33,012 nucleotides of DNA from a virus, in the IMG/VR virus record IMGVR_UViG_3300045988_126595, positions 1 through 33,012 of that record; one strand, given 5' to 3'. The notes below the pieces were generated by a model that was not told the origin of the DNA, did no database searches, and was given only the letters and a program-made list of their open reading frames with translations. Shown in pieces: positions 1 through 32,544 of this stretch; within the stretch, counting starts at the first letter, position 1, and the number at the start of each line of letters is the position of its first letter. The position numbers were made by a program, and so were the translations under genes.

Positions 1-55
1 ATTGTCCTCATAGAACATTAGATATGGGGTGGGATAGATTTCTAAATATGATAAA
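1..55. repeat. Terminal direct repeat, identical to 32958-33012 (circular-closure or assembly overlap)
   Basis: The 55-nt string attgtcctcatagaacattagatatggggtgggatagatttctaaatatgataaa occurs at both window ends. Confidence 0.95.
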
Positions 56-497
56 GGCTAAATTAGAAGATAAACCTGTTTCAAATAAAGTCAATGCTTT
101 TTATAGAGTAAAAACTCAAAAACATGGTTGGTTATCAGAGGTTAAAAATCTAGAAGATTATGCTGGTTGGGAGAATAGTCCTATAACTGGACTTGCTATA
201 AGAGTAGATAAAGGTTCTATTAAATATAGAGTTCATATTGCAGGCAGAGGATGGTTACCTTATGTAACTGGCTATAATATTAACGATATATTTAATGGCT
301 ATGCTGGTAATGGCAGTATTATTGATTGTGTAGAATGCTATTACTATACTCCTAATAATATTAGACCATTCAAAAAAGCAAAATATAAAGTTAATAATTA
401 TCCTTATCAACATGATAATGAAAAAATTAATGGTCAAGATGGCTATGCGGGAGTATATGGAGTTAGTGCTACTAAATTTCAAATAACAATTGAATAA
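1..497 (+). CDS. Endolysin, C-terminal (cell-wall-binding) part; continuation of the ORF that starts at 32546
   Basis: The frame of 32546..33012 continues in frame through the 55-bp overlap to the stop at 495-497; the joined ORF is 909 nt (302 aa). The C-terminal half has two ChW-like repeats (Y.V....GWLSEV....AG and YRVH..GRGWLPYV.G...YAG). Confidence 0.85.
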   Translation, partial: CPHRTLDMGWDRFLNMIKAKLEDKPVSNKVNAFYRVKTQKHGWLSEVKNLEDYAGWENSPITGLAIRVDKGSIKYRVHIAGRGWLPYVTGYNINDIFNGYAGNGSIIDCVECYYYTPNNIRPFKKAKYKVNNYPYQHDNEKINGQDGYAGVYGVSATKFQITIE

Positions 498-510
498 AGA
501 TGTTAAAATA

Positions 511-810
511 ATGCTTAAAATCTATAAAACAAAAGAAAGAGATTGGATGGGCTATAAGATATATAGAAACACACCATTAACAAGACATCATATATTTAAA
601 AAGGTGTATGGCGGAGATAATAATATATCTAATTATGCTTTATTAATAGAAAAATCTCACGAGGACTTGCATAAAATTGAAAAGATAGATTTACAAGCAT
701 ATAATGAATTAAATAATTTATTCAGAGAATTAAATGAAAGTATGCAACCTCCAAACGAAGAATATTACCAAAATGTAGGTAAAATATTAAAGAGAGTTAA
801 AAAAAATTAA
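511..810 (+). CDS. Small HNH-family endonuclease (start uncertain: TTG 490 or ATG 511)
   Basis: Motif LTRHHIFKKVYGGDNNISNYALLIEKSHEDLH fits the H-N-H pattern. There is no convincing RBS for either start. Confidence 0.55.
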   Translation: MLKIYKTKERDWMGYKIYRNTPLTRHHIFKKVYGGDNNISNYALLIEKSHEDLHKIEKIDLQAYNELNNLFRELNESMQPPNEEYYQNVGKILKRVKKN

Positions 811-820
811 CTCTTTTTTC
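793..820 (+). terminator. Intrinsic terminator closing the late/lysis transcription unit
   Basis: agagtta (793-799) pairs with taactct (808-814) around an 8-nt loop, followed by a T-run (ctcttttttctttatttt). Confidence 0.6.
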
Positions 821-880
821 TTTATTTTATAAGGGTTTATAAAGAAAATGCAAAAAAATTAAAAAAGTCATTAAAATGTA

Positions 881-910
881 TTGACAAATGTATATACCTT
901 ATGTTATAAT
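881..910 (+). promoter_or_regulatory. Near-consensus sigma-A promoter (early)
   Basis: TTGACA (881-886), 18-nt spacer, TGtTATAAT with TATAAT at 905-910; an RBS and ATG follow at 941. Confidence 0.7.
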
Positions 911-940
911 AATATTGTAATTAAGGAAAGGAGAACAAAA

Positions 941-1147
941 ATGGAAAAGTTAACTAAAGAAGAAATGTTAAAAGAATTAAGAAAAATAGAATTAGAAAGA
1001 ATTGAAATGGATATGTATGGTGGTTCTAGAGAAGAATACATAAAACTATGTGAAAAAGAAAAAGAATTAAAAGAAAAATTATACAATGCAGATTATAGAG
1101 AAATAACAAACGATGAAGTTAAAGATTTCATAAGAGTAGGATATTAA
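941..1147 (+). CDS. Hypothetical early protein, paralog of 3147..3341
   Basis: RBS aaggaaaggaga precedes ATG 941. The ORF-track start at 881 is the promoter -35 box. About 70% aa identity to the 3147 ORF (MDMYGGSREEY...KLYNADYREITNDEVKDF). Confidence 0.75.
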   Translation: MEKLTKEEMLKELRKIELERIEMDMYGGSREEYIKLCEKEKELKEKLYNADYREITNDEVKDFIRVGY

Positions 1148-1159
1148 GGAGGAGGAATA

Positions 1160-1246
1160 ATGAAAAAGATAATTAAATGGTTAAAAGATAATTTAGACAT
1201 AGATTTATATGAATATTATGGAGTTAAGAAAGGAGAAAAAATATAA
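1160..1246 (+). CDS. Small hypothetical protein (28 aa)
   Basis: Strong RBS aaggaggagg 6 nt upstream of the ATG; stop overlaps the next ATG (ATAATG coupling). Confidence 0.4.
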   Translation: MKKIIKWLKDNLDIDLYEYYGVKKGEKI

Positions 1247-1335
1247 TGAAAAAGTTTTTAAAAGAAAATAAAGGAGTAATTATATTCTATGCAGAATTAG
1301 TTATAATTACATTAATAGTAGTAAATAATTTATAG
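1246..1335 (+). CDS. Small hypothetical membrane peptide (29 aa)
   Basis: Translationally coupled to the previous ORF; hydrophobic stretch VIIFYAELVIITLIVV. Confidence 0.4.
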   Translation: MKKFLKENKGVIIFYAELVIITLIVVNNL

Positions 1336-1350
1336 AAAGGAAGTGATAAG

Positions 1351-1524
1351 ATGATAAATAATGATGATATGATAAAAATGGGATTATTAATATTATTATC
1401 AATTGTAATTGGAGCAATAATTACTTATGTTGGGTTTACTTATAACAGATATGATGTTAATAGAGATGGAAAAGTAACATCTGCAGATTATGTAGAAATT
1501 AAAAATTATATTATGAAAAAATAA
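1351..1524 (+). CDS. 57-aa membrane-anchored protein with a single dockerin/EF-hand-like Ca-binding loop
   Basis: RBS gaaaggaagtga. TM helix MGLLILLSIVIGAIITYVGF is followed by DVNRDGKVTSADYVEIKNYIM (compare the dockerin repeat DVNGDGKVNSTDxxxLKRYLL). Confidence 0.55.
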   Translation: MINNDDMIKMGLLILLSIVIGAIITYVGFTYNRYDVNRDGKVTSADYVEIKNYIMKK

Positions 1525-1594
1525 AAAAGGAGAATAAAAATGAAAGTTGGATACCTGGTGTTACTAGAAGATATAAAGAATTAGGAGGGAAATA

Positions 1595-1867
1595 ATGGAA
1601 GAATTTAAATTACAGTTCTACTTCAATTTATATAAGAATACTTCTATGGATAGTAGAAATGATTTTAGAGCAAAGTTTCATAAGAGACATGGGGAGTTTC
1701 GTTATTTAAATGAATTGATAAGGATGATAGAAAATTATCAAATAAAAACATTTGGTTGCACTTTACATGAGGGCTATAACAGCAGGCTAAAGCAACAGAC
1801 AAATGCCTACCTAAGAGGAAGAGAAAGAAAGAAATCAAATGGAAGGAGGTGGAGGAATTATGAATAA
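1595..1867 (+). CDS. Hypothetical protein (basic C-terminus)
   Basis: RBS aggaggg 6 nt upstream of the ATG; 90-aa ORF. Confidence 0.6.
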   Translation: MEEFKLQFYFNLYKNTSMDSRNDFRAKFHKRHGEFRYLNELIRMIENYQIKTFGCTLHEGYNSRLKQQTNAYLRGRERKKSNGRRWRNYE

Positions 1868-2069
1868 TGTTTATATTAATTTAAAAGAAAAAAATATTTG
1901 TGATCCAATAAATGATATATTTAAAAATCAAGATTTAGTATCTATTGAAGAATTAATTGATAAATTAGAAGATTATTATGCAGAAATAGGAAAACAACAA
2001 GAAGAAATTGAAGATTTAAAAGAATATAAAAATCAATATTGCGAATTATATGACCAATATTGTAGATAG
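1860..2069 (+). CDS. Hypothetical acidic coiled-coil protein
   Basis: RBS ggaggtggagg precedes ATG 1860 (the ORF-track start 1839 has no RBS); overlaps the previous stop (ATGAATAA). Confidence 0.65.
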   Translation: MNNVYINLKEKNICDPINDIFKNQDLVSIEELIDKLEDYYAEIGKQQEEIEDLKEYKNQYCELYDQYCR

Positions 2070-2077
2070 GAGATAAT

Positions 2078-2233
2078 ATGAGAAAGAAAACAAAAACAAA
2101 AGTATTAAATATTAGACTTTCTGAATGGGAGTTTAATGAATTAGAAAAAGCAACAAAGTTGACAGGTCAGAGCAAGACATCGTTCTTAATAATGGCTATG
2201 CTTGAAAAAACACAAAGAATAGGAGGTAAATAA
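2078..2233 (+). CDS. Ribbon-helix-helix (CopG/MobC-like) DNA-binding protein, 51 aa
   Basis: VLNIRLSEWEFNELEKATKLTGQSKTSFLIMAML fits the RHH beta-alpha-alpha pattern; RBS taggaga; stop overlaps the next ATG. Not in the ORF track because it is under 60 aa. Confidence 0.55.
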   Translation: MRKKTKTKVLNIRLSEWEFNELEKATKLTGQSKTSFLIMAMLEKTQRIGGK

Positions 2234-2700
2234 TGGAAGAAAAATTATTCTTATTTAACCCTTTTAACATAAAAAACATAAGTGAAAAAGAACTTGCTAG
2301 TATGTATCAAGAAGTATTTAAAAAGATTGTAGATGAACCTAATTCAATGTATTTATATGCTCATAATATAGAAGTTTATTCCAATCTTAATTACATAATA
2401 GGAGAAGTGATAGCAAGATTAACTAAAGACATAATAGAATTAAAAACACAAATAGAAATAGATAGAGCAATAAAAACAACCGAAGAAAGAAAGAACTGGA
2501 ATACCGAAAGAGATGGAAAAACACCCGCTATGGCTTATTTTGAGGCTCTAGGAACTCGTTTCTGCAAAGATAGTATAAACAGACTAGCAGATAAAGAATG
2601 CTCGTTAAAAAGGTTTAAAAATGCTTATACAAGTACAGAAAATAAAATTAATGCTCTAAAAAAGAAAATGGAAAGTATAAAGTTTGAAGAATTTAATTAA
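2233..2700 (+). CDS. Hypothetical protein
   Basis: 155-aa ORF, RBS aggaggt, coupled to the RHH gene. Confidence 0.75.
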   Translation: MEEKLFLFNPFNIKNISEKELASMYQEVFKKIVDEPNSMYLYAHNIEVYSNLNYIIGEVIARLTKDIIELKTQIEIDRAIKTTEERKNWNTERDGKTPAMAYFEALGTRFCKDSINRLADKECSLKRFKNAYTSTENKINALKKKMESIKFEEFN

Positions 2701-2737
2701 AATTTTCTCTTTTTTTGTATTTTTTTGTTAAAATCAG

Positions 2738-2766
2738 TTGACATTAATTCGAATAGGGTGTATAAT
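2738..2766 (+). promoter_or_regulatory. Consensus sigma-A promoter
   Basis: TTGACA (2738-2743), 17-nt spacer, TATAAT (2761-2766). Confidence 0.7.
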
Positions 2767-2801
2767 ATATATGTAATCAAAAAAAGGAAGGAATGATTAA
2801 T

Positions 2802-3131
2802 ATGATTATAGCAAATTGGTTTTTATATAAAAACTTTACACAAAATGAAAGGTTAGTAATAGAACAAGATGATTATACAATAATAAGTGAAACAGAAAAA
2901 GCAATAAGAGTTAGATTTATGAGTGATTATGGAAATGTAACTACTTGGTTACCAAAATCAGTAGTTTCTTATGAGAAAACAAAAACAACATTCAAGCAAG
3001 AAGAAGTTAAAGAGGAAATTAAAATTAAAACAAAAACTGGAGAAATTAAAGAAGTAACTTGGATGGACAGTTTAACTGTGCAAACAACAGATGGAAAAAC
3101 TTATATGAAATTCGCAGTACAATTTATTTAG
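2802..3131 (+). CDS. Hypothetical protein (T.KA...-W.PK..V motif shared with 3343..3729)
   Basis: RBS aaaggaagga. ATG 2802 is better spaced than ATG 2793. Motif: SETEKAIRVRF...TTWLPKSVV. Confidence 0.7.
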   Translation: MIIANWFLYKNFTQNERLVIEQDDYTIISETEKAIRVRFMSDYGNVTTWLPKSVVSYEKTKTTFKQEEVKEEIKIKTKTGEIKEVTWMDSLTVQTTDGKTYMKFAVQFI

Positions 3132-3146
3132 AAAGGTGGTGATAAT

Positions 3147-3341
3147 ATGAGAGATAAATTATTAAAAGAATTAAAAGATGTAGAATTAGAAAGAACAGCA
3201 ATGGATATGTATGGTGGTTCTAGAGAAGAGTATTTAAATTTATGCAAAAGAGAAAAAGAATTAAGAGAAAAATTATACAATGCAGATTATAGAGAAATAA
3301 CAAACGATGAAGTAAAAGATTTTGTAAAAGGTGGTTATTAG
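3147..3341 (+). CDS. Hypothetical protein, paralog of 941..1147
   Basis: RBS aaaggtggtga. A 46-nt stretch aaaaattatacaatgcagattatagagaaataacaaacgatgaagt is shared identically with the 941 gene. Confidence 0.8.
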   Translation: MRDKLLKELKDVELERTAMDMYGGSREEYLNLCKREKELREKLYNADYREITNDEVKDFVKGGY

Positions 3342-3342
3342 T

Positions 3343-3729
3343 ATGTGGTATGAAATAGAAATTAATAAGCAAAATATTATTTATGATACTGGTAAAGCAG
3401 TTTTAATTAAAATGCCTAATAATTCAAAATATGCAAGTTTAACATTTTGGCATCCAAAAAAATTAGTTAGAGATGGCTCTAATTCTTATGCAGTTTCTAT
3501 TAGTTATAATGAAAATTTTCAATTTACTTTATTCAAAAAAGGGCAAGGAAAATATAATAGAAATGAAATGATTAAAAAACAAATAATAGGAATTAAAGAG
3601 TTTGAAGAAGCATTTGAATGTATGGAAAATTGTACTAAAGCAAAGTCTAAAGAGAGTTATTTAATAGTAAAAGAACCCGAAAAGGTAGAAAAAGAAATTA
3701 TTATAGAAAGAAGTTTATTAAATGAATAA
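3343..3729 (+). CDS. Hypothetical protein (T.KA...-W.PK..V motif)
   Basis: ATG 3343 lies 9 nt after aaaggtgg; DTGKAVLIKM...TFWHPKKLV. Directly upstream of and overlapping the SNF2 helicase gene. Confidence 0.7.
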   Translation: MWYEIEINKQNIIYDTGKAVLIKMPNNSKYASLTFWHPKKLVRDGSNSYAVSISYNENFQFTLFKKGQGKYNRNEMIKKQIIGIKEFEEAFECMENCTKAKSKESYLIVKEPEKVEKEIIIERSLLNE

Positions 3730-4951
3730 TCATCAAGAAAAAGCATTTGAAAAGTTTTCCAAATTAAAAGTAGGTGCTTTGTTTATGCAAATGGGAACAG
3801 GTAAAACTAGAGTAGCAATTGAATTAATAGATTATAATAAATGTGATTTATTAATTTATGTAGCACCATTTAGCACATTAAAAAACATTGAAAATGAATT
3901 TATTAAATGGGAATTAAAAACATCATATAAATTAATTGGTTATGAGACTATTAGTTCTAGTGATGTTAAATATTTAGATTTATTGAAAAAATTAGAAAAT
4001 AAAAAATGTTTTATAGTAGCAGATGAAAGTATCTTTATTAAAAATGAAGAGACAAAAAGATTTAAAAGATTAATTCAATTAAGAAACAAATGTGAATATG
4101 CTCTTATACTTAATGGAACACCTATAACAAAAAATGAGTGGGATATATATAATCAAATGTTCTTCTTAAGTCCATTAATAATAAACATGAATAGAGAACA
4201 ATTTCTTAATACCTTTTTTAAAAAAATCACATACAAAAAAGCAAAAAGCAATGAAAAAGTATTTTATAAATTTAGTGAAGTAAATGCCAATTTGTTACAA
4301 GGGATGATAGAACCTTATATATTTAAATGTGAATTAGATTTTAATAAAAAAGAAGAAGAAAATTATATTTATATCAATTATGAAGATAATGGATATTATG
4401 AAGAAAAAGAAAAGAAATTAAATGAATATATAGAAAAAAGAACATCAGATGTTATAATAAATATGCTTACTAATTTAAATGTAATTGCGTCTAATTATAA
4501 AAAGAAAAATGATAAATTAATTGAATATATAAAAAACAAAAGGTTAATAGTATTTTGCAACTACTTAGATGAGATTAAATATATAAGTGATAGAGTTGAG
4601 TGTTATTTAATAACTGGAGAAACACCAAGAAGAGATATAATAATTGATAATTTCAAAAACAATAATATTCCTTTATTAATGACTTACGGAGTAGGAAGTT
4701 ATTCATTAAATTTACAATTTTGCAATGAAATAGTATATTCAAGTATTAATTTTGATTATGCCAAATTGGAACAAAGTAAATATAGAATTAAAAGAATAGG
4801 GCAAAAACAAGATATTAAATATACCTACTTCTTAACTGATTTAGGCATTAATAAATTAATATTAGAAAATATAAAAAGAAAAATGACTTTAGAAAATTTA
4901 GTTAAAGAAAAATTAGAGGAGAGTGATATTGAGTGGCTAAAAGATATATAG
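3722..4951 (+). CDS. SNF2-family (SF2) helicase/ATPase
   Basis: Motif I MQMGTGKT, motif II VADESIFIKN, motif III LNGTPITKN, motif VI QSKYRIKRIGQKQD. Confidence 0.85.
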   Translation: MNNHQEKAFEKFSKLKVGALFMQMGTGKTRVAIELIDYNKCDLLIYVAPFSTLKNIENEFIKWELKTSYKLIGYETISSSDVKYLDLLKKLENKKCFIVADESIFIKNEETKRFKRLIQLRNKCEYALILNGTPITKNEWDIYNQMFFLSPLIINMNREQFLNTFFKKITYKKAKSNEKVFYKFSEVNANLLQGMIEPYIFKCELDFNKKEEENYIYINYEDNGYYEEKEKKLNEYIEKRTSDVIINMLTNLNVIASNYKKKNDKLIEYIKNKRLIVFCNYLDEIKYISDRVECYLITGETPRRDIIIDNFKNNNIPLLMTYGVGSYSLNLQFCNEIVYSSINFDYAKLEQSKYRIKRIGQKQDIKYTYFLTDLGINKLILENIKRKMTLENLVKEKLEESDIEWLKDI

Positions 4952-6228
4952 AAAAAAATGTATACGAAAGTGCTAAAGAAAGAATTAGTTTTATATTTAA
5001 TGAATTTGATAATATTTGTGTATCATTTAGTGGTGGTAAAGATAGTGGAGTAGTACTTAATTTAGCAATAGAAGAGGCAAGAAAAAGAAAAAGAAAGATA
5101 GGAGTAGTATTTATAGATTTAGAGGCTTGGTATAAAAAAACTGAAGAATTTATTAATAGAATGATATTTAATAATTTAGATGTATTAGAACCTTATTGGA
5201 TATGTTTACCTATGAAGAGTGATAATTCTCTTTCTTATTTTGAACCTTTTTGGATATGGTGGGAAAGGGGAAAAGAAGATATATGGGTAAGACCTATGCC
5301 TCAAAACGAATATGTTATTAATTTAAATAATAATAAATTAGATTTTTACAAAGAAAACATGACATTTGAAGATTTTGTTAAAGAGTTTGGCAATTGGTAT
5401 GGCAAAGGAGAAAAGACTGCTTGTTTATTAGGAATTAGAGCAAATGAAAGTTTAAATAGATATAGAGCAATAGTGATGGATAAAACAAAATATAAAAATA
5501 AGAATTATTCAACATTAGTTAAAAATGAAACTTATAATTTTTATCCTATATATGATTGGACTGTCGATGATATTTGGACTTATAATGGAAAGTTTGAAAA
5601 AGACTATAATCATTTATATGATTTATTCTATAAAGCAGGAATAAGTATTTATAAAATGAGGGTAGATGAGCCATTTGGAGATACTTGCAAGGCTGGTTTG
5701 AATATGTTTAAGGTAATAGAGCCAGAGACTTGGTTTAGAGTGGCAAATAGAGTATCAGGGGCTAATATGGGGTCATTGTATAATCATAATAAAATTATGA
5801 ATTCCAATTATACATTACCAAAAGGACATACTTGGAAGACATTTACTGAATTTTTACTAGATACTCTGCCAAAAGATACTGCAGATAATTATAGAGTTAA
5901 GTTTTACAAATTTGCTAAGTATTGGGAAGAAGTTGGATGTGGTCTACCAGAAAATGAAATAAAAATATTGGAAGAAAAATATTCAGATAAGATTATAAAT
6001 ACTCATCAATTTAATAATAGAGGTAAAAAAGATAAAGAAGTAATAGTATTTAAAGATATAGTTGATGAAATACCCGAATTAGATACAAAAAGTGAATTAT
6101 TAACATGGAAAAGAATGGCAATGTGTATTATCAAAAATGATTATCTATGTAGAAGATTAAATTTTGGAATAACAAAAGATTTAACAAAAAGACAATCGGA
6201 ACTTTTAGAAAAATATAAAAATTTATAA
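4933..6228 (+). CDS. PAPS-reductase-like PP-loop ATPase with long C-terminal extension (IbrA/DndC-like)
   Basis: PP-loop VSFSGGKDSGVVLNL near the N-terminus; 431 aa. GTG start overlaps the SNF2 gene end by 19 nt. Confidence 0.8.
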   Translation: MAKRYIEKNVYESAKERISFIFNEFDNICVSFSGGKDSGVVLNLAIEEARKRKRKIGVVFIDLEAWYKKTEEFINRMIFNNLDVLEPYWICLPMKSDNSLSYFEPFWIWWERGKEDIWVRPMPQNEYVINLNNNKLDFYKENMTFEDFVKEFGNWYGKGEKTACLLGIRANESLNRYRAIVMDKTKYKNKNYSTLVKNETYNFYPIYDWTVDDIWTYNGKFEKDYNHLYDLFYKAGISIYKMRVDEPFGDTCKAGLNMFKVIEPETWFRVANRVSGANMGSLYNHNKIMNSNYTLPKGHTWKTFTEFLLDTLPKDTADNYRVKFYKFAKYWEEVGCGLPENEIKILEEKYSDKIINTHQFNNRGKKDKEVIVFKDIVDEIPELDTKSELLTWKRMAMCIIKNDYLCRRLNFGITKDLTKRQSELLEKYKNL

Positions 6229-6241
6229 GGAGAGTGATGTT

Positions 6242-6745
6242 ATGTTTAAAAGTCCAGTTTATAATGTTATAGGAGTACCTATTGAAAAAGTTAGAGCAAA
6301 TTCATATAACCCTAATGCGGTAGCACCTGCAGAAATGAAACTTTTGTATGATAGTATTAAAGAAGATGGCTATACAATGCCTATAGTATGTTATTATTTA
6401 AAAGATGAAGATATGTACGAAATAGTAGATGGTTTTCATAGATATTCTATAATGTTAAAATATAAAGATATTTATGAAAGAGAAAATGGGATATTACCAG
6501 TATCGGTAATAGACAAGCCTATTAGTGATAGAATGGCAAGTACTATTAGACATAATAGGGCAAGAGGAAGTCATAATGTAGACCTTATGAGTGGAATAGT
6601 AGGAGAACTACACGAATTAGGCAAAACCGATGCTTGGATAATGAAACATCTAGGAATGGATGCAGATGAAGTATTAAGATTAAAACAAATAAGTGGTCTT
6701 GCTAGTCTTTTTAAAGATAAAGAATTTAGCAAATCTTGGGAATAA
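6242..6745 (+). CDS. ParB/sulfiredoxin-fold N-terminal-domain protein (IbrB-like)
   Basis: Motifs NPNAV, IVDGFHRY and IRHNRARG. Immediately downstream of the PAPS-reductase-like gene. Confidence 0.8.
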   Translation: MFKSPVYNVIGVPIEKVRANSYNPNAVAPAEMKLLYDSIKEDGYTMPIVCYYLKDEDMYEIVDGFHRYSIMLKYKDIYERENGILPVSVIDKPISDRMASTIRHNRARGSHNVDLMSGIVGELHELGKTDAWIMKHLGMDADEVLRLKQISGLASLFKDKEFSKSWE

Positions 6746-6749
6746 GCAG

Positions 6750-6778
6750 TTGAAAAAACAACAAAAATATGTTATAAT
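6750..6778 (+). promoter_or_regulatory. Sigma-A promoter with extended -10
   Basis: TTGAAA (6750-6755), 17-nt spacer, TGtTATAAT with TATAAT at 6773-6778. Confidence 0.65.
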
Positions 6779-6783
6779 TATAT

Positions 6784-6867
6784 TGGTTAGGACATAAAGA
6801 GCATTTGATGATGAGTAGGTAAGTCCTAACCAGTATACCTATTTATCATCAAGTGTTCTTTTTGTTT
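6784..6867 (+). ncRNA. Short structured transcript/leader ending in an intrinsic terminator (candidate sRNA or attenuator)
   Basis: Stem A pairs 6784-6793 (tggttaggac) with 6823-6832 (gtcctaacca). Stem B pairs 6799-6812 (gagcatttgatgat) with 6845-6858 (atcatcaagtgttc): 14 bp with 2 G-U, followed by tttttgttt. The two stems interleave in pseudoknot topology. Confidence 0.45.
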
Positions 6868-6976
6868 AATCAGAAAGTGAGGAAAAAATGGCAAAATTCA
6901 AAGAGATGATAGAACAAAAATAATATGAAGATAGGGGTGGAGATATTAAAAAGATAATATTTCTTCTTTTTATATA

Positions 6977-7005
6977 TTGACATACCCACTTAAATGGTGT
7001 ATAAT
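6977..7005 (+). promoter_or_regulatory. Consensus sigma-A promoter (replication operon)
   Basis: TTGACA (6977-6982), 17-nt spacer, TATAAT (7000-7005). Confidence 0.7.
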
Positions 7006-7034
7006 CAATTTAGATAAGAAAGGTAGGTGATAAA

Positions 7035-7193
7035 ATGAAACTATTATTTAGATTTATGAAGAAAGCAGACAAGGATAGAAATAGAATAACTATACCACAA
7101 TTTCTAATTAATAAATATGGTAGTGAATTCTATTTAGAGTTCTATGATGATGAAACTATAAAATTAGTACCAGTTAAAAAGGAGGAAAAATAA
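7035..7193 (+). CDS. AbrB/SpoVT-like (looped-hinge helix) DNA-binding protein, 52 aa
   Basis: RBS aaaggtaggtga. NRITIPQFLINKYGSEFYLEFYDDETIKLVPV resembles the SpoVT_AbrB signature. Not in the ORF track because it is under 60 aa. Confidence 0.55.
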   Translation: MKLLFRFMKKADKDRNRITIPQFLINKYGSEFYLEFYDDETIKLVPVKKEEK

Positions 7194-7195
7194 AA

Positions 7196-7942
7196 ATGCA
7201 ACATTCATTTAATATAGAATTAGCAAAAGAATATGGTATATTAGAAGCAATAATAATCAACAATTTATTCTTTTGGATAGAAAAAAATAAAGCAAACGAT
7301 GTAAGTTATTATGATGGCACTTATTGGACTTATAATAGTATAAAAGCATTAAATGAATTATTCCCTTATGCAAGTGAAAGAAAAATTAGTTATGCTTTAA
7401 AACATTTGGAAGAAGAGGGGATAATAAAAACAGGAAATTACAATAAATTAGCATATGATAGAACTTTGTGGTATGCATTTACCGAAAAAGGGATTTCCAT
7501 TTTACAAAAATGTTGTTTCCATTTTACAAAATCGACAAATGGATTTTACAAAAGTGATGAACCTATACCAGATATAAACACAGATATAAACACAGATAAT
7601 AATAATAATAGTAGTAGTATAGAGAAACGAGACACAATTTATGACTTCTTAGAACAAAATTTTGGAAGAACATTAAATAGTATTGAAATTGAAATGATAA
7701 GAGAATGGAATGATAATGAATTAACTAGATATGCAATTAAACAAGCAGTATTAAATGGTAAATATAATGTTAAATACATAAACACGATATTAGTTAATTA
7801 TAAAAACAATTCCATAACAACAGTACAACAAGCACAAGAAGAAGAAAATAAGTTTAAGAGTAAAAAAGAAATAAAAAAATCAAAAACAGCCACAATGGAT
7901 GAAACTTTAAAGGAGATATATAATGGAACAATTAGAATTTAG
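7196..7942 (+). CDS. Phage replisome organiser / DnaD-domain replication initiation protein
   Basis: The C-terminal IYDFLEQNFGRTLNSIEIEMIREW...YAIKQAVLNGKYNVKYINTILVNYKNN matches the DnaD-domain pattern; the N-terminus is winged-helix-like. Confidence 0.8.
   Translation: MQHSFNIELAKEYGILEAIIINNLFFWIEKNKANDVSYYDGTYWTYNSIKALNELFPYASERKISYALKHLEEEGIIKTGNYNKLAYDRTLWYAFTEKGISILQKCCFHFTKSTNGFYKSDEPIPDINTDINTDNNNNSSSIEKRDTIYDFLEQNFGRTLNSIEIEMIREWNDNELTRYAIKQAVLNGKYNVKYINTILVNYKNNSITTVQQAQEEENKFKSKKEIKKSKTATMDETLKEIYNGTIRI
7494..7620. repeat. Iteron array plus tandem 12-mers plus an A/T trinucleotide run inside the replisome-organiser gene (candidate ori)
   Basis: attttacaaaa occurs at 7499, 7521 and 7543 (exact 22-bp phasing). 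cagatataaaca occurs twice in tandem at 7569-7592, followed by (aat)n(agt)n. Confidence 0.6.
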
Positions 7943-8324
7943 TAAAATAATAAAAGTATTAACAATGGCATATCCATATTATTTTAAAGACATGGAAAAA
8001 GAAAATACAATAATGTTTAGTCAATTGTATTATAATAAATTAAAAAAATATAATTATCAAATAGTAGCAAATGCTATAAATAAAATTATAGATGAAAATG
8101 AGTTTATGCCTACATTATCAGAAATAATAAAACAATGTGATAAAGAATATAGAAGTTATTATAAACAAAAAATAGATTTAATGTATAAAGATGGTTTTTT
8201 TAAAACAGACCAAGAATATGGAAAAGCCTTACAATGGCTCTTTGAGGACAAACCTATTATTTCTAATTGGTTGTTAGAAGAAATCAATGGATATGAGGAA
8301 AAATTATTAATATCAAAAAAATAA
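7923..8324 (+). CDS. Hypothetical protein; possible helicase-loader (SPP1 G39P-like) by position and N-terminal pattern
   Basis: Overlaps the organiser gene end. Sequence ...MAYPYYFKDM...FSQLYYNKLKKYNYQIVANAINKIIDENEFMPTLSEI recalls the loader family. This is from memory, not verified. Confidence 0.4.
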   Translation: MEQLEFSKIIKVLTMAYPYYFKDMEKENTIMFSQLYYNKLKKYNYQIVANAINKIIDENEFMPTLSEIIKQCDKEYRSYYKQKIDLMYKDGFFKTDQEYGKALQWLFEDKPIISNWLLEEINGYEEKLLISKK

Positions 8325-8343
8325 ATAAAAATGTAAAACACAA

Positions 8344-8372
8344 TTGACAAAAATTAAAATAAGGTGTATAAT
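8344..8372 (+). promoter_or_regulatory. Consensus sigma-A promoter (recombination operon)
   Basis: TTGACA (8344-8349), 17-nt spacer, TATAAT (8367-8372). The downstream RBS block gaaaggagaacaaa is identical to the one at 927-940. Confidence 0.7.
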
Positions 8373-8402
8373 TAATATGTAAATGAAAGGAGAACAAAGA
8401 AA

Positions 8403-8984
8403 ATGAAAGAAATAAATATTAAATTAATGAATATTCAACAAGAATTAAAAGCACCAAAAGGACAATATAATGATTTTGGTAAATATGCTTACAGAAGTTG
8501 TGAGGACATATTAGAAGCAGTAAAACCTTTATTAAAAAAAGAAAAGGTAGTATTAACAATAAGTGATGAACTTCAATATATAGGAAATAGATACTATATA
8601 AAAGCAACAGCAACACTTATTGATACTGAAAGTGAGGCAACTATAAGTAACAGTGCTTATGCAAGAGAAGAAGAAACAAAAAAAGGAATGGATGGAAGTC
8701 AAATAACTGGAGCAAGTAGTAGTTATGCTAGAAAATATGCTTTAAATGGTTTGTTTGGAATAGATGATAATAAAGATAGTGATACTACTAATATTCAAAG
8801 TAAAGAAGAAAAAGAAGATAAAAAGGCAAGCCCTAAACAAATAGAACTTATACAAAAATATTATCAAGGCGAAAATTTAACAAAATTATTAGAAGTAAAC
8901 AACCTTGAAAAAATAGAAGATATGTCTATTAATAAGGCTAGCGAAATATTAAGTAAATTATTTGCAAAAAAGGAGGACAAGTAA
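8403..8984 (+). CDS. erf: ERF-family single-strand annealing protein
   Basis: NIQQELKAPKGQYNDFGKYAYRSCEDILEAVKPLLKKEKV...GASSSYARKYALNGLFGIDD is typical of ERF recombinases. Confidence 0.75.
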   Translation: MKEINIKLMNIQQELKAPKGQYNDFGKYAYRSCEDILEAVKPLLKKEKVVLTISDELQYIGNRYYIKATATLIDTESEATISNSAYAREEETKKGMDGSQITGASSSYARKYALNGLFGIDDNKDSDTTNIQSKEEKEDKKASPKQIELIQKYYQGENLTKLLEVNNLEKIEDMSINKASEILSKLFAKKEDK

Positions 8985-9298
8985 TGAATAATTTAATAGT
9001 AAAAAAAGAAGATAATTATCAATTAACAGATACGATTATATCAGAATTAAGATTAATTGATGAAGAAGAAAAAGAATTAAAAGAGAAAAAAGAAAAGATA
9101 AGAGAAATCTTATTAAAAGAAATGGAAGATAAAAATATCTTAAAATTAGAAAATGAGAATATTAGTATTTCTTACAAAGCACCGACAGAAAGAGAAACAT
9201 TTAGAACAAAAGATTTTAAAAAAGATTTACCTGATTTATATGATACTTATGTAGAATTCACACCAGTTAAAAGTTCATTATTAATCAAGATTAAATAA
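8984..9298 (+). CDS. Hypothetical coiled-coil protein in the recombination module
   Basis: 104-aa ORF coupled by ATG/TAA overlaps on both sides. Confidence 0.7.
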   Translation: MNNLIVKKEDNYQLTDTIISELRLIDEEEKELKEKKEKIREILLKEMEDKNILKLENENISISYKAPTERETFRTKDFKKDLPDLYDTYVEFTPVKSSLLIKIK

Positions 9299-9897: not shown

Positions 9898-10090
9898 ATT
9901 TAAAAAAGAAAAATTTGATAAAATAAAATTAAATCAATCAAAAATAGCAGAAGAAGTTGGAATAACTAGGCAGTATATGAATAGTATATATAATCAAGCA
10001 ACACTATGCAAAAAAACCACTGCATATGCTATAACAAAAAGTATAGATAATAATGCTGAAATAAAAGATTTTTTTGAAGAGGCAAGATAA
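9890..10090 (+). CDS. Small helix-turn-helix protein
   Basis: LNQSKIAEEVGITRQYMNSIYN is an XRE-like HTH. Confidence 0.6.
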   Translation: MYRFKKEKFDKIKLNQSKIAEEVGITRQYMNSIYNQATLCKKTTAYAITKSIDNNAEIKDFFEEAR

Positions 10091-10599
10091 TGAGTATTAG
10101 AAGCAATTTTTGTGAGTTTGATAAAGAAACAAGAAAATATATAAAAAAAAGAGATAATAATAGGTGTGTCTTTTGTGGAAACAATGGAGCATTACAAATA
10201 GCACATATATTCTTATCAAGGGCAAAAGGTGGCAAAGGATGTAAAGAAAATGGTTGTCTTTTATGTATTAAATGCCATCAAGCATTAGATAATGGCAAAG
10301 ATACATCATTAAGAGACCAAATAAGCCGATTTTGTGGGTCATATTTAATCGAAAAAGAAAACATAATAGATTTATTTAGTTTGATGAAAACACTTAAATA
10401 TGATAAAAAAAATAGCCTTAGAGAAAGAATTATAATATCAGAAGAGAAAAAAGAAATAAAAGATAGATGTAAAAATTGCAGATTATTAGAAAAAAGGCAA
10501 GTCAAAGGTAATTCAATACCTGTATATTATTGTAGATATAGAAAAATAAGAATAACAAAAAATACAGAGGCTTGCAAAGATTTTAGGAGGATAAAATGA
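10090..10599 (+). CDS. HNH endonuclease with C-terminal Cys-rich region
   Basis: CVFCGNNGALQIAHIFLSRAKGGKGCKENGCLLCIKCHQALDNG. Confidence 0.75.
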   Translation: MSIRSNFCEFDKETRKYIKKRDNNRCVFCGNNGALQIAHIFLSRAKGGKGCKENGCLLCIKCHQALDNGKDTSLRDQISRFCGSYLIEKENIIDLFSLMKTLKYDKKNSLRERIIISEEKKEIKDRCKNCRLLEKRQVKGNSIPVYYCRYRKIRITKNTEACKDFRRIK

Positions 10600-16160: not shown

Positions 16161-16397
16161 ATGGAGTTTATTAAATTGAGAGAAGATAGATATTTAATCA
16201 AGGACAGTAATGGCTTGATTGTATCTAACGAAGAGAAACTAAAATTAGAAAAGAAAGAATTAATCATTAAAGATATAGAAAGCAATGAGTGTCAAGGAAA
16301 GACTACTCAGAGAATTGAAGAAATAGATAGGGAGTTGGAAAATGGAAACAAGTCTAAATCTAACACTATCAAAAAAGCAAAGTCAACTACTAAATGA
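16161..16397 (+). CDS. Hypothetical protein immediately upstream of TerL (small-terminase position, no recognisable motif)
   Basis: RBS taggaggt; overlaps the TerL start by 56 nt in another frame. Confidence 0.55.
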   Translation: MEFIKLREDRYLIKDSNGLIVSNEEKLKLEKKELIIKDIESNECQGKTTQRIEEIDRELENGNKSKSNTIKKAKSTTK

Positions 16398-17943
16398 TAT
16401 AATTAGCCCTAATCTAACTGAAATATATGTATTAGGAAGTACGCAAAGTGGCAAGACCTTTGATATATGTTTAGGGTGTATCTTATATGCACAAGCCTTA
16501 TATAATTATAATCCAAATGAAACTTACTTTGGCTCTATAACTGGTTGGAGTTTAGAGGCATTAAAAGGTAACATCTTAGAGCCTTTAAAAAAGTTTCTAG
16601 ATGATATGAAGTTAGAAAAAGGAAGAGATTATACATTAAGGTGGCAGACCGATGACAAATATCTTGAAATATACAATATCAGATATTATTTCTTTGGTTT
16701 TAATAATGTACTTGCATTTAATAAGATATTAGGTAAGCCTTTGATATTTGAATGGATAGATGAAAGTGCTAGAATATATTCACAAGATAATTTAAGAGAG
16801 CCATTTAATGAGTTCCCTGGTAGACAAGTATCTTATGCAGACCATCCTTATTTAAAGACTATACATTCATTCAATGTTGAGGGTGGGGAAAATCATCCAT
16901 ACAAGATTGACTATATAGATAAGAAGCCTTATGCTAAGCATTATTCCTTTTTTCCTTATGATAATCCTAAGATAAAAACAGAAGAAGCAATGAGGAAAGT
17001 ATTAGAAATGTTTCCACCTGGAAACCTAAGAGAACAAAAGATATTTAATAAATGGGTACTTGCAACTGGTAGAGTATTCAATACTATAAACACTATAGAT
17101 AATCTTGATAATTATGCTTTTAGAGAAATAGGAATAGGAATAGACTATGGTTCAGTCCATGCGACAGTCTTCGTACCTATTGCTCTTGCTTATGATAAGG
17201 TAAATAAGAAATGGGTGTTAATAAGGTTAGAGTATTACTACCATAATGCTAAAGAAGAACAAGATAACCCTACAACTGAATACTTTAGTAAGCAATTAAG
17301 ATTATTCTTATTGTATCTAAAAAGCGAGTATGGACAAGTGCCTATTACCACAATGGTATTAGATAGTGCCGCCGCTCACTTCCATAATAGGTTAATTGCT
17401 GATAATATACCACATACATTAATCAATAAAAGCATGGATAATGTAGTTGAGGGAGTTCAATATATGCAATCTTTGTTTTATAAGGGATATTTGCTTATAT
17501 ATAAACAAAAAGCAATTAAGCACATAACCGACAATGGCGAATTAATTTATAGTGGTAAAGATGATGGAATGCTTGAATTAGAAAGTTATAGATATGACTT
17601 AAAGGCAAGTGCTAAAAGTGGTAAAGAAGCCTATGTAAAAGAGTTTGATGACCACATAGATGCTTGCTTAACAGGAGATACTATTATTGCAACAGATAGA
17701 GGTAATTTCAAAATAATTGATTTAGTTGGAAAAAGTGGAAATGTTAAATGCTTTGATGGTAATAAATTTATATATAAAAATTTTAAAGATGTAAGGCTTA
17801 CAAAAAGAAAACAAGACATATATAAATTAAAATTATCAAATGGTTATGAATTAAAAGGTACATATGACCATCTTATATTAACTACAAAGGGCTATAAGAA
17901 ATTAGGAGAATTAACTGAGAAAGATAAAATCATTTGCAATTGA
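16342..17943 (+). CDS. terL: Terminase large subunit N-extein (16342-17664) fused to an N-terminal split-intein half (17665-17940)
   Basis: Walker A GSTQSGKT, Walker B LIFEWIDES, nuclease motifs GIDYGSVHA, VLDSAAA and DDHIDA. The ORF then reads CLTGDTIIATDRG (intein block A) ... GTYDHLILT (block B) and stops at TGA 17941. Confidence 0.9.
   Translation: METSLNLTLSKKQSQLLNDIISPNLTEIYVLGSTQSGKTFDICLGCILYAQALYNYNPNETYFGSITGWSLEALKGNILEPLKKFLDDMKLEKGRDYTLRWQTDDKYLEIYNIRYYFFGFNNVLAFNKILGKPLIFEWIDESARIYSQDNLREPFNEFPGRQVSYADHPYLKTIHSFNVEGGENHPYKIDYIDKKPYAKHYSFFPYDNPKIKTEEAMRKVLEMFPPGNLREQKIFNKWVLATGRVFNTINTIDNLDNYAFREIGIGIDYGSVHATVFVPIALAYDKVNKKWVLIRLEYYYHNAKEEQDNPTTEYFSKQLRLFLLYLKSEYGQVPITTMVLDSAAAHFHNRLIADNIPHTLINKSMDNVVEGVQYMQSLFYKGYLLIYKQKAIKHITDNGELIYSGKDDGMLELESYRYDLKASAKSGKEAYVKEFDDHIDACLTGDTIIATDRGNFKIIDLVGKSGNVKCFDGNKFIYKNFKDVRLTKRKQDIYKLKLSNGYELKGTYDHLILTTKGYKKLGELTEKDKIICN
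17665..17940 (+). mobile_element. Intein N-terminal half (IntN, 92 aa)
   Basis: Cys1 lies at 17665-17667, directly after the terminase DDHIDA motif. Blocks A and B are present; there is no endonuclease domain or blocks F/G before the stop. Confidence 0.8.
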
Positions 17944-17986: not shown

Positions 17987-18613
17987 ATGATAAAATATGA
18001 AAATGATTATGCTTATGTTGATGGTTATAAATTTAAGAAAAATACAAGAGATAATTATTATTTATCTTCTAACAATATTGGCAATAGAAGAAAATATTTG
18101 CACATTTATATATGGGAAAAGCATAATGGGGAAATACCAAAAGGTTATGATATACACCATATAGACCACAACAAAGATAACAATGAAATAAGCAACCTTA
18201 AAATGATATTAAAAAGAGAACATAGCTTATTACATTCAAAAGAATTAACCGAAGAACAAAAAGCAAAAAAAATAAAGAACTTTAATGAAAAGGCAAGACC
18301 AAAAGCAATAGAATGGCATAAATCAAAAAAAGCAGAAAAATTCCATAAAGAACAATATAAAATTTCTCTAGGGAAAATGAAACCGCAAAAAATTACTTGT
18401 GAAAATTGTGGAAAAGATTATTATTCAATTTGTAATGGTAGAAATAAATTTTGTTCTAATAAATGTAAAAGTGCTTATAGAAGAAAAATAGGAGTAGATA
18501 ATATTGAAAAAAAATGTATCAAATGTGGAGAAAAATTTGAAGTTAACAAATATTCAAAAAGAGAGCAATGTTATAATTGCTACCCCTGTAGAAATAAAAA
18601 AACTTCCAAATAA
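17987..18613 (+). CDS. Free-standing HNH homing endonuclease with C-terminal zinc ribbons
   Basis: YLHIYIWEKHNGEIPKGYDIHHIDHNKDNNEISNLKMILKREHSLLH, plus CENCG...CSNKC and CIKCG...CYNC. Confidence 0.85.
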   Translation: MIKYENDYAYVDGYKFKKNTRDNYYLSSNNIGNRRKYLHIYIWEKHNGEIPKGYDIHHIDHNKDNNEISNLKMILKREHSLLHSKELTEEQKAKKIKNFNEKARPKAIEWHKSKKAEKFHKEQYKISLGKMKPQKITCENCGKDYYSICNGRNKFCSNKCKSAYRRKIGVDNIEKKCIKCGEKFEVNKYSKREQCYNCYPCRNKKTSK

Positions 18614-32043: not shown

Positions 32044-32544
32044 ATGAAAGAAATATGGAAAGATATTCCAAATTATGAGGGATTATATCAAGCAAGTAAT
32101 TTGGGGAACATCAGAAGTTTAAAAAATAGATGGGGAAATCGTATTGAACCAAGATTGGTAAAACAGCAAAAAACAAATAAAGGATATAAAAGAGTTAGAC
32201 TGAGTAAAAAAAATAAGTCAAAAACTTTTATGGTTCATAGAATAATATATATAACATTCATTAAAGATATTGAAAATGGTTTAGAAATAAATCATAAAGA
32301 CTTTAATAGAGAAAATAACAAAATTAACAATTTGGAAATGATAACTCACACAAATAATGTTAGATACAGTAAAGCAAAACCAATTATACAATTAAGTCTA
32401 AACAACGAATATATAAGACAATGGGATTGTATTCGTGATGTAAAAAGAGAAATAGGTATAGACCATAGACAAATATGTGCTTGTCTGTTAGGAAAACAAA
32501 AAACTTGTCATGGCTATAAATGGAAATATAAGGAGAGTGATTAA
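32044..32544 (+). CDS. NUMOD4 plus HNH_3-type free-standing homing endonuclease inserted between holin and endolysin
   Basis: EIWKDIPNYEGLYQASNLGNIRS (NUMOD4) and INHKDFNRENNKINNLEMITHTNN (HNH). Confidence 0.85.
   Translation: MKEIWKDIPNYEGLYQASNLGNIRSLKNRWGNRIEPRLVKQQKTNKGYKRVRLSKKNKSKTFMVHRIIYITFIKDIENGLEINHKDFNRENNKINNLEMITHTNNVRYSKAKPIIQLSLNNEYIRQWDCIRDVKREIGIDHRQICACLLGKQKTCHGYKWKYKESD

Follow-up and report, generated by a model that had tools for sequence, protein, structure and literature searches.

The viral record IMGVR_UViG_3300045988_126595 of the IMG/VR database, which we analysed over 33,012 bp and refer to as the window, contains a cassette of four consecutive genes that encode a small protein named p132, a minimal SNF2-family ATPase, a PP-loop enzyme of the IbrA/YbdN type, and a ParB-like protein of the IbrB/YbdM type (Table 1). 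We tentatively propose, with somewhat less than even confidence, that the cassette performs an ATP-dependent, DNA-directed modification that serves phage counter-defence. The link to DNA is best read from the predicted ParB N-domain and helix-turn-helix-like tail of IbrB, and from the coupling of the enzyme gene to a putative SNF2 translocase of double-stranded DNA. The counter-defence role is best read from analogies: the adjacency of the cassette to the anti-CRISPR gene AcrIIA5 in other phages, a phage protein providing escape from the Dnd system, Aca-regulated phosphoadenosine phosphosulfate (PAPS) reductases, and the precedent of the ParB-like protein DpdB.

The list of open reading frames (ORFs) bears out the three genes named in a preliminary description of this DNA, with a 19-nt overlap between the SNF2 and IbrA genes (4933–4951) and a 13-nt gap between the IbrA and IbrB genes (6229–6241). 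However, the coupled array begins earlier, as the stop of the p132 ORF overlaps the SNF2 start by 8 nt. Profile searches support the domain assignments of that description for all three products. Both lobes of the SNF2 ATPase exceed their Pfam cut-offs (SNF2-rel_dom, 35.3 bits; Helicase_C, 39.6 bits), and the protein matches phrog_62 at an E-value of 2.5e-67. The core motifs GTGKT, DESIF, LNGTP and RIKRIGQ are visible and align to the SNF2 core of Sulfolobus SSO1653 (1z63), the best sequence match in the PDB. Partial sub-threshold matches to DrmD, DpdE, BrxH and ZorD were obtained with NCBIfam and PADLOC models. We rejected an identity with DrmD of DISARM, DpdE of Dpd or BrxH of BREX, which score 25–38 bits against cut-offs of 500–950, and no partner genes of the DISARM, Dpd or BREX helicases are present.

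The PP-loop enzyme matches PAPS_reduct (60.9 bits) and DUF3440 (167.9 bits) above the Pfam cut-offs, and phrog_2302 at 2e-105. It was previously described as a PAPS-reductase-family protein with an intact SGGKDS PP-loop and a long C-terminal extension; the loop is intact and the extension is DUF3440. The enzyme is 35% identical to YbdN of Escherichia coli K-12 over its full length (E 2e-84), and the ParB-like protein is 50% identical to YbdM (E 6e-54); the family comparison was made with these K-12 proteins. This full-length homology, together with phage records that annotate the same genes as IbrA and IbrB, upholds the correspondence to the IbrA/IbrB pair drawn in the preliminary description. 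The GTG start at 4933 is supported by a GAGGAG ribosome-binding site at 4916–4921, 11 nt upstream, and by the N-termini of homologues, which align from residue 1–3. Nearly the same ribosome-binding context, GGAGAGTGAT[A/G]TT, is found ahead of 4933 and of 6242.

The PP-loop FSGGKDS, residues D62 and E64, and the motifs GIRxDESxxR and YPIYDW are invariant in 24–36 diverse IbrA homologues, which argues for a working enzyme. Among 36 homologues, the motif YNxLYD is invariant too, as are a number of Arg, Trp and Asp positions within DUF3440. The homologues share a single near-invariant cysteine, C91, and no Fe-S-type cysteine cluster was found across the 36 aligned sequences. In an AlphaFold2 model of the enzyme (pLDDT 88.9), the N-domain resembles CysH, FAD synthase, CysD, TtuA and LarE, which share an α-hydrolase adenine-nucleotide fold, and the whole-chain Foldseek search covers the N-terminal half only. 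The nearest solved relatives by sequence profile, again for the N-domain only, are the adenylyl-transferring enzymes CysD and FAD synthase (PAPS domain); a single-sequence search against the PDB returned no match. When DUF3440 was modelled alone (pLDDT 81), structure searches returned no neighbour from either the PDB, where the best E-value was 0.95, or BFVD, where it was 0.4. This domain contains a β-rich insert of approximately 40 residues that YbdN lacks. In ten family members of unusual length, the only domains are PAPS_reduct and DUF3440, apart from one ABC_tran fragment, which is probably an artefact of assembly or gene calling.

The profile models did not place the 4933 ORF in true CysH, the outcome that the preliminary description had named as one that would speak against its assignment. 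The scores were 30.3 bits against a cut-off of 154 for NF002537, 26.3 against 165 for TIGR00434, 25.2 against 254 for TIGR02057, and 19.2 against 235 for TIGR02055; across the CysH, PAPS-reductase and CysD models of NCBIfam they range from 19 to 30 bits against cut-offs of 154–413. The protein also lacks the C-terminal catalytic cysteine motif, has 431 residues including DUF3440 where the stand-alone CysH enzyme has about 240, and always adjoins a ParB-like gene, never cys genes. The SGGKDS PP-loop is intact and of the ATP type, whereas it is generally degenerate in CysH, and the aligned position in the APS reductase 2goy reads SGAEDV. The parallels to DndC/DndB and to BREX suggested earlier hold at the level of superfamilies and fail at that of families: TIGR03183 for DndC scores 32 bits against 290.4 and the PADLOC DndC model covers only residues 160–257, while the match to BrxP of BREX type 4 is confined to the PP-loop (residues 24–45, E 2.4e-5) and the window contains no BREX genes.

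The IbrB-like protein scores 23.2 bits with ParB_N (E 7.3e-5), just under the cut-off of 26.3, and matches phrog_2159 at 1.8e-79. Its earlier assignment to the ParB/sulfiredoxin fold is consistent with the motifs DGFHR and RHNRARG, which are invariant or nearly so in the family; RHNRARG is invariant in the family sample. In alignments of the N-domain with Spo0J and Noc, DGFHR falls on their GERR motif, and residues 119–147 match a helix-turn-helix-type repeat. Of its 167 positions, 77 are invariant in a sample of 25 sequences. We propose from these sequence features that IbrB is a minimal ParB, composed of a nucleotide-binding ParB/sulfiredoxin domain and a helix-turn-helix. Its match to phrog_498 at 9.8e-9 shows a resemblance to the ParB portion of ParB-methyltransferase fusions from phages, and it also matches the SerK model of NCBIfam at 1.4e-4. 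IbrB has no match among the PADLOC models and therefore does not belong to the families of DndB or DpdB. A partition ParB was rejected, given a TIGR00180 score of 18.4 against 58.45, a length of only 167 residues, and the lack of a ParA gene. No conserved perfect inverted repeat resembling a parS site lies downstream of ibrB across the loci compared, and chromosomal copies end in terminators there. IbrB is about 70–84% identical to the window protein where IbrA is 40–64% identical; values of 69–78% and 40–46% are typical across phyla (loci L040–L119).

The IbrA family comprises 2039 clusters in a search of 50%-identity representatives when E ≤ 0.001 is required, or 347 with E ≤ 1e-30, and occurs in 223 phage records, in 40 of them at full length. 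We compared 120 loci: 36 IMG/VR contigs, 80 species-representative genomes, three phage isolates, and the window. The genome loci are the best 80 of 183 confirmed with a single PP-loop pattern from a trimmed alignment, so that the sample is biased toward gut Firmicutes. Neighbourhood ORFs were called by a simple longest-ORF heuristic, and all neighbouring ORFs were clustered. The order IbrA then IbrB is essentially universal, and the two genes overlap or lie at most 30 nt apart in 99 of the 117 loci in which both were placed. In 49 loci, most of them in phage contexts, an SNF2 gene immediately precedes IbrA (31 of the 36 viral contigs, 15 of the 80 genomes, two of the three isolates, and the window), and the distance from its stop to the IbrA start is −29 to +14 nt in all 49. 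The IbrA proteins of these loci fall into 11 clusters at 70% identity, and their SNF2 proteins are as little as 23% identical to that of the window. The arrangement thus recurs in many independent loci and is not due to chance.

The association of SNF2 with the pair, postulated before from the window, is strengthened by Fusobacterium phage phiFN37, in which the gene order is swapped to IbrA-IbrB-p132-like-SNF2 and the SNF2 protein is orthologous (36% identity, E 7e-55). A linkage that outlasts such a rearrangement speaks for a functional tie between two sub-pairs. The p132-family gene lies upstream of SNF2 in 25 other loci. In 11 loci with a longer SNF2 protein (461–598 residues), and also in Clostridium phage phiCs5676-1, it is replaced by an unrelated protein of approximately 363–400 residues. 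This alternative partner (L008, 3139–4230; L125, 946–2115) is cysteine-rich at its N-terminus (CxH…CxxC) and matches no Pfam domain. In most genome loci, IbrA and IbrB form a stand-alone pair amid unrelated genes, as in Clostridioides difficile (L084), many Lachnospiraceae, and E. coli ybdNM, and neither SNF2 nor nuclease genes were found beside the stand-alone cellular pairs. Pfam searches found no domains in the recurrent neighbour families fam8, fam9, fam19, fam20, fam4, fam12 and fam27, and no desulfurase or sulfur carrier is encoded in any neighbourhood of the 120 loci.

Several cultured phages carry the cassette in the same order and with overlapping genes, p132-like (or the 363–400-residue alternative)-SNF2-IbrA-IbrB: Streptococcus phages D4276, the Pika/PY series and CHPC877, Lactobacillus phages CR28 and phiAQ113, and Clostridium phage phiCs5676-1. 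The window proteins are 50% (SNF2), 76% (IbrB) and 44% (p132) identical to those of D4276. IbrA is only 39–61% identical between the window and the cassette phages, none of which is a relative at the nucleotide level, and the window lacks an AcrIIA5 homologue and an integrase. The pair also occurs without SNF2, in phage CHPC1230 and in PhiR5_2, a phage of E. coli. The genes of the virulent Streptococcus thermophilus phage D4276 are ordered lysin…AcrIIA5 (D4276_028)-p132-like (029)-SNF2 (030)-IbrA (031)-IbrB (032)-…-cro-like, and the AcrIIA5 stop abuts gene 029 (L132, 1984–5765). A 138-residue gene (fam9) in the same slot of 11 viral contigs is an AcrIIA5 homologue with 65–92% identity in BLAST comparisons (L012, L014–L022 and L024). 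No AcrIIA5 homologue was found in the window, where two small genes occupy the position. In temperate streptococcal phages, the cassette is located between the endolysin and integrase genes.

The closest relatives of the window pair, E. coli YbdN/YbdM and IbrA/IbrB, consist of the same two-domain enzyme (PF01507 and PF11922) and the same small PF02195 partner with a ParB/sulfiredoxin domain and helix-turn-helix, and YbdN/YbdM are encoded in the same order by overlapping or abutting genes. Unlike YbdN/YbdM, the window pair is phage-borne, expressed early, and translationally coupled to the SNF2 motor and p132-family protein, which the cellular pairs lack. The Dnd/Ssp systems likewise use a PAPS-reductase-fold ATP pyrophosphatase with SGGKDS, encoded beside a ParB-superfamily gene, and share DNA as the substrate, which for the window cassette is proposed. 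IbrA, however, is without the Fe-S and cysteine-dyad features of DndC/SspD (PMC12839542), and IbrB matches no DndB model. The DndA/SspA desulfurase, the DndD/SspC ATPase, DndE/SspB and DndFGH were not found among the scanned ORFs of the window or the recurrent neighbour families. The sulfur chemistry considered in the preliminary description is not specifically supported, because the enzyme has one conserved cysteine and no Fe-S motif and its neighbourhoods contain no sulfur-donor genes.

Other systems offer partial precedents for counter-defence and for a ParB-like partner of a modifying enzyme. In vibriophages, a PAPS-reductase domain fused to a Dam methylase provides escape from Dnd when it is moved into a related phage together with a neighbouring gene (bioRxiv 10.1101/2021.05.05.442762). 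This protein, p0018 of Piel et al., is likewise a phage PAPS-reductase-fold domain that is physically joined to a partner acting on DNA and that counters host immunity; however, it is a 479-residue fusion without DUF3440, a ParB partner or SNF2, and no vibriophages are among the full-length IbrA matches. Aca-regulated PAPS reductases were proposed as candidate anti-defence genes in a 2026 survey (PMC13551039). As summarised in PMC12839542, the ParB-like DpdB drives DNA insertion by the transglycosylase DpdA. The Dpd 7-deazaguanine system follows the logic proposed here, with a ParB-like NTPase aiding the modifying enzyme and SNF2-type helicases, such as the SNF2-like DpdE, in the same system. 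The window differs in having no tRNA-guanine transglycosylase (TGT) enzyme, its SNF2 protein scores 24.9 bits against the DpdE cut-off of 500, and IbrB matches no Dpd model.

We hypothesize that the cassette consists of two linked sub-pairs, IbrA with IbrB and, as a phage-specific addition, p132 with SNF2. IbrB would bind DNA and use a nucleoside triphosphate to load or activate IbrA. IbrA would act as an ATP pyrophosphatase that adenylates a group on nucleic acid, and substitution of this group would leave a covalent mark. The bare SNF2 motor, for which p132 is proposed as an adaptor, would translocate along double-stranded DNA and enable the enzyme pair to act over the whole, fast-replicating phage genome. 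Expressed early from its own strong promoter, the cassette may thereby shield phage DNA from restriction-like host immunity. No methyltransferase was detected among the larger ORFs of the window, in keeping with the preliminary description, and DNA modification for self-protection, as proposed there, is a reasonable inference now backed by the anti-CRISPR adjacency. A bolder version, which we regard as doubtful, is that the four-gene cassette processively installs an undescribed, broadly protective ATP-dependent covalent DNA mark that is neither methylation nor Dnd-type phosphorothioation. Stand-alone YbdN/YbdM pairs that write the same mark locally, in an epigenetic or regulatory role, would then explain the "co-activator" phenotype.

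Several points weigh against DNA modification for counter-defence. No member of the family has been experimentally shown to modify DNA, and YbdM was termed "completely uncharacterized" in 2022 (PMC8764527); likewise, the literature searched gives no biochemical function for IbrAB-type proteins, in line with the preliminary description. Cellular pairs have neither a nuclease partner nor SNF2, and an unpartnered modification enzyme needs another rationale. PP-loop enzymes of the IbrA fold mostly act on small molecules or tRNA, and the structure searches with DUF3440 against the PDB and BFVD give no hint of nucleic-acid binding. The proven anti-Dnd protein p0018 differs in architecture, with neither DUF3440 nor ParB. 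Finally, the high conservation of IbrB relative to IbrA might mean that the target is a conserved component of the cell and not DNA.

The pair could instead control gene expression, with IbrB as a nucleoside triphosphate-switched DNA binder that opens or activates silenced promoters and IbrA as its enzymatic cofactor, so that a phage would take over the host or activate its own or prophage genes. Genetic work that Sandt et al. are said to have reported in 2002 found IbrAB to be needed for eib prophage gene expression in E. coli ECOR-9, and the family reportedly owes its name to this co-activation. Annotation strings read "co-activator of prophage gene expression", the tail of IbrB is helix-turn-helix-like, and the cellular copies have no restriction partner. 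In E. coli, ybdNM is a stand-alone regulated operon repressed by the LysR-type factor CitR (PMC9068703). Nevertheless, the invariant catalytic residues of IbrA imply chemistry beyond binding, the tight coupling to SNF2 and the anti-CRISPR neighbour in a virulent phage suit counter-defence better, and no conserved palindrome or binding site lies downstream of ibrB across the loci. We consider a regulatory role unlikely as the main explanation, and it is compatible with DNA modification, since activation could result from a DNA mark. A target other than DNA, be it a host RNA such as tRNA, a protein, or a small molecule derived from a nucleotide, whose modification would disable a host process or immune signal while SNF2 plays a separate part on DNA, is in our judgement quite unlikely. 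The structural relatives of the IbrA N-domain (CysH, CysD, FAD synthase, TtuA, NcsA, LarE and TilS), the kinases within the ParB/sulfiredoxin fold together with the SerK match of IbrB at 1.4e-4, and the extreme conservation of IbrB across phyla, suggestive of a universally conserved partner, are consistent with it. It is at odds with the SNF2-IbrA coupling that is conserved in 49 loci and outlasts a gene-order swap, with the ParB N-domain and helix-turn-helix that IbrB shares with DNA-binding ParBs, and with the lack of tRNA genes and RNA-family matches in or near the cassette.

Defence or superinfection exclusion, in which a phage or prophage would use modification-based immunity akin to Dnd, Dpd, BREX or DISARM to shield the lysogen or infected cell against competing phages, appears very unlikely to us. 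SNF2, PAPS-reductase and ParB domains recur in such systems, weak matches to DrmD, DpdE, BrxH, DndC and BrxP were found, the pair is also chromosomal, and the slot between lysin and integrase in temperate streptococcal phages is that of a "moron". However, no nuclease or other effector is linked to the pair in any of the 120 loci, the matches to defence models are all partial and far below the family cut-offs, with none for IbrB, and the chromosomal neighbours are unrelated housekeeping or transport genes. The cassette also occurs beside an anti-CRISPR gene in a virulent phage, and in the window, which has no integrase. The remaining reading takes the 4933 ORF for a genuine PAPS reductase whose activity would raise assimilatory sulfate reduction in the infected cell, as the database name "phosphoadenosine phosphosulfate reductase" and the PHROG category "moron, auxiliary metabolic gene" imply; phage-genome papers repeat it, calling the enzyme an auxiliary metabolic gene of sulfur metabolism (PMC6145125; PMC12323421; PMC10945359). 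We assign it a negligible probability: the CysH and PAPS/APS-reductase models of NCBIfam score 19–30 bits against 154–254, the DUF3440 extension and obligatory ParB-like partner are foreign to CysH, C91 is the sole near-invariant cysteine and there is no C-terminal catalytic one, and the PP-loop is an intact ATP-type SGGKDS where the aligned APS reductase has SGAEDV.

The IbrA/IbrB pair is a named and widely annotated family, and the same four-gene cassette is present in deposited phage genomes; as regards the pair, the window is thus another member. The translationally coupled adaptor-SNF2 extension specific to phages appears to be new, as do its retention after rearrangement and its repeated location behind AcrIIA5; no description of them was found in the literature searched. 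That literature contained no report linking PAPS reductase, ParB-like and helicase genes in phages, and no functional work on DUF3440. The pair is very widespread, from E. coli K-12 and gut Firmicutes to many phages, and the evidence presented here contradicts the sulfur-metabolism-helper reading that is usual in phage-genome papers. Linkage to a DNA motor, survival of a gene-order swap, and the place behind a validated anti-CRISPR turn the annotation into a testable hypothesis, and D4276, which carries the cassette behind AcrIIA5, is a cultured, genetically tractable dairy phage. If true, DNA modification by the cassette would amount to a new chemistry for modifying DNA as well as a new class of anti-defence device, and would assign a function to two y-genes of E. 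coli K-12.

Table 1 Features of the cassette operon in the window.
Feature	Position	Strand	Description
Consensus sigma-70-type promoter, TTGACA-17-TATAAT	2738–2766	+	12/12 match in intergenic gap; heads six-gene operon with the cassette
p112, small protein	2793–3131	+	First gene of the operon; from ORF list; no Pfam match
p64, small protein	3147–3341	+	Paralogue of ORF 881–1147; sits in the AcrIIA5 slot of streptococcal phages
p132 family (phrog_27058)	3343–3729	+	phrog_27058 match 1.8e-32; stop overlaps SNF2 start by 8 nt
Minimal SNF2-family ATPase, 409 aa, ATG	3722–4951	+	Two RecA-like lobes, no accessory domain
IbrA/YbdN-type PP-loop enzyme, 431 aa, GTG	4933–6228	+	PAPS-reductase-fold N-domain (1–235) and DUF3440 (236–431)
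IbrB/YbdM-type protein, 167 aa, ATG	6242–6745	+	ParB/sulfiredoxin N-domain and C-terminal helix-turn-helix-like segment
Long hairpin followed by T-run	6784–6872	+	RNA fold −42.1 kcal/mol, z = −9.5; arms 6796–6821 / 6836–6861

Positions 1–9000 of the window contain only four perfect (12/12) promoters, all on the + strand, at 881–910, 2738–2766, 6977–7005 and 8344–8372, which appear to divide the early region into operons. Three of them are intergenic, whereas the one at 881–910 coincides in part with the TTG start listed at 881; this start is probably set too far upstream. Downstream of ibrB, a promoter-like site with a TG (6750–6778, TTGAAA-17-TATAAT) precedes the hairpin, which is probably the end of the cassette transcript. 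The element 6750–6872, which separates the cassette from the replication genes and has no Rfam match, may serve as a terminator, encode a small RNA, or play a regulatory role. The promoter at 6977–7005 heads the replication and recombination genes (DnaD-like, G39P-like, ERF and PD-(D/E)XK). The cassette lies ahead of the replication genes in position, as stated in the preliminary description; with its own promoter, the hairpin, and fresh promoters downstream, it nevertheless forms its own early operon outside the replication module. Otherwise near-identical variants of the phage (L128) have an IstB/DnaC-like AAA protein in place of the DnaD-like/G39P-like loader pair (window 7196–8324); exchange of the replication loader while the cassette stays constant indicates mosaic exchange of the replication module.

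The p132 protein has a length of 128–132 residues; its ORF begins at 3331 or 3343, and gene callers choose 3343. Homologues of p112 occur upstream in loci L025–L027, and p112 and p132 have a common N-terminal motif of approximately 40 residues (…ETEKA[IV]…W[LH]PK…; BLASTP E 6e-5), which suggests that a small domain was duplicated ahead of the SNF2 gene. The C-terminal two-thirds of the products of ORFs 881–1147 and 3147–3341 are near-identical (…MDMYGGSREEY…EKLYNADYREITNDEVKDF…). Just upstream of the cassette operon, a 51-residue ORF (2078–2233; MRKKTKTKVLNIRLSEWEFNELEKA…) resembles a DNA-binding protein of the ribbon-helix-helix type and could be a candidate Aca-like regulator.

The window has a G+C content of approximately 26%, with every long ORF on the + strand, and is a nearly complete genome of a siphovirus-like phage. 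The same phage is seen repeatedly as contigs of about 33 kb across many metagenomes. No near-identical DNA was found in phage records, the sole match being a chance-like 45-nt segment within ibrB shared with Flavobacterium phages; the phage is without a cultured relative. Capsid searches gave weak partial matches only, none of the window ORFs encodes an integrase, and Rfam and tRNA scans of the window returned nothing. The 533-residue product of ORF 16342–17943 is probably the large terminase, judging from its size and position; its C-terminus weakly matches an intein-splicing domain, and a gene for an HNH_3 endonuclease (17987–18613) lies next to it. Together with those at 10090–10599 and 32044–32544, the window contains three HNH endonuclease genes, which suggests the presence of homing elements.

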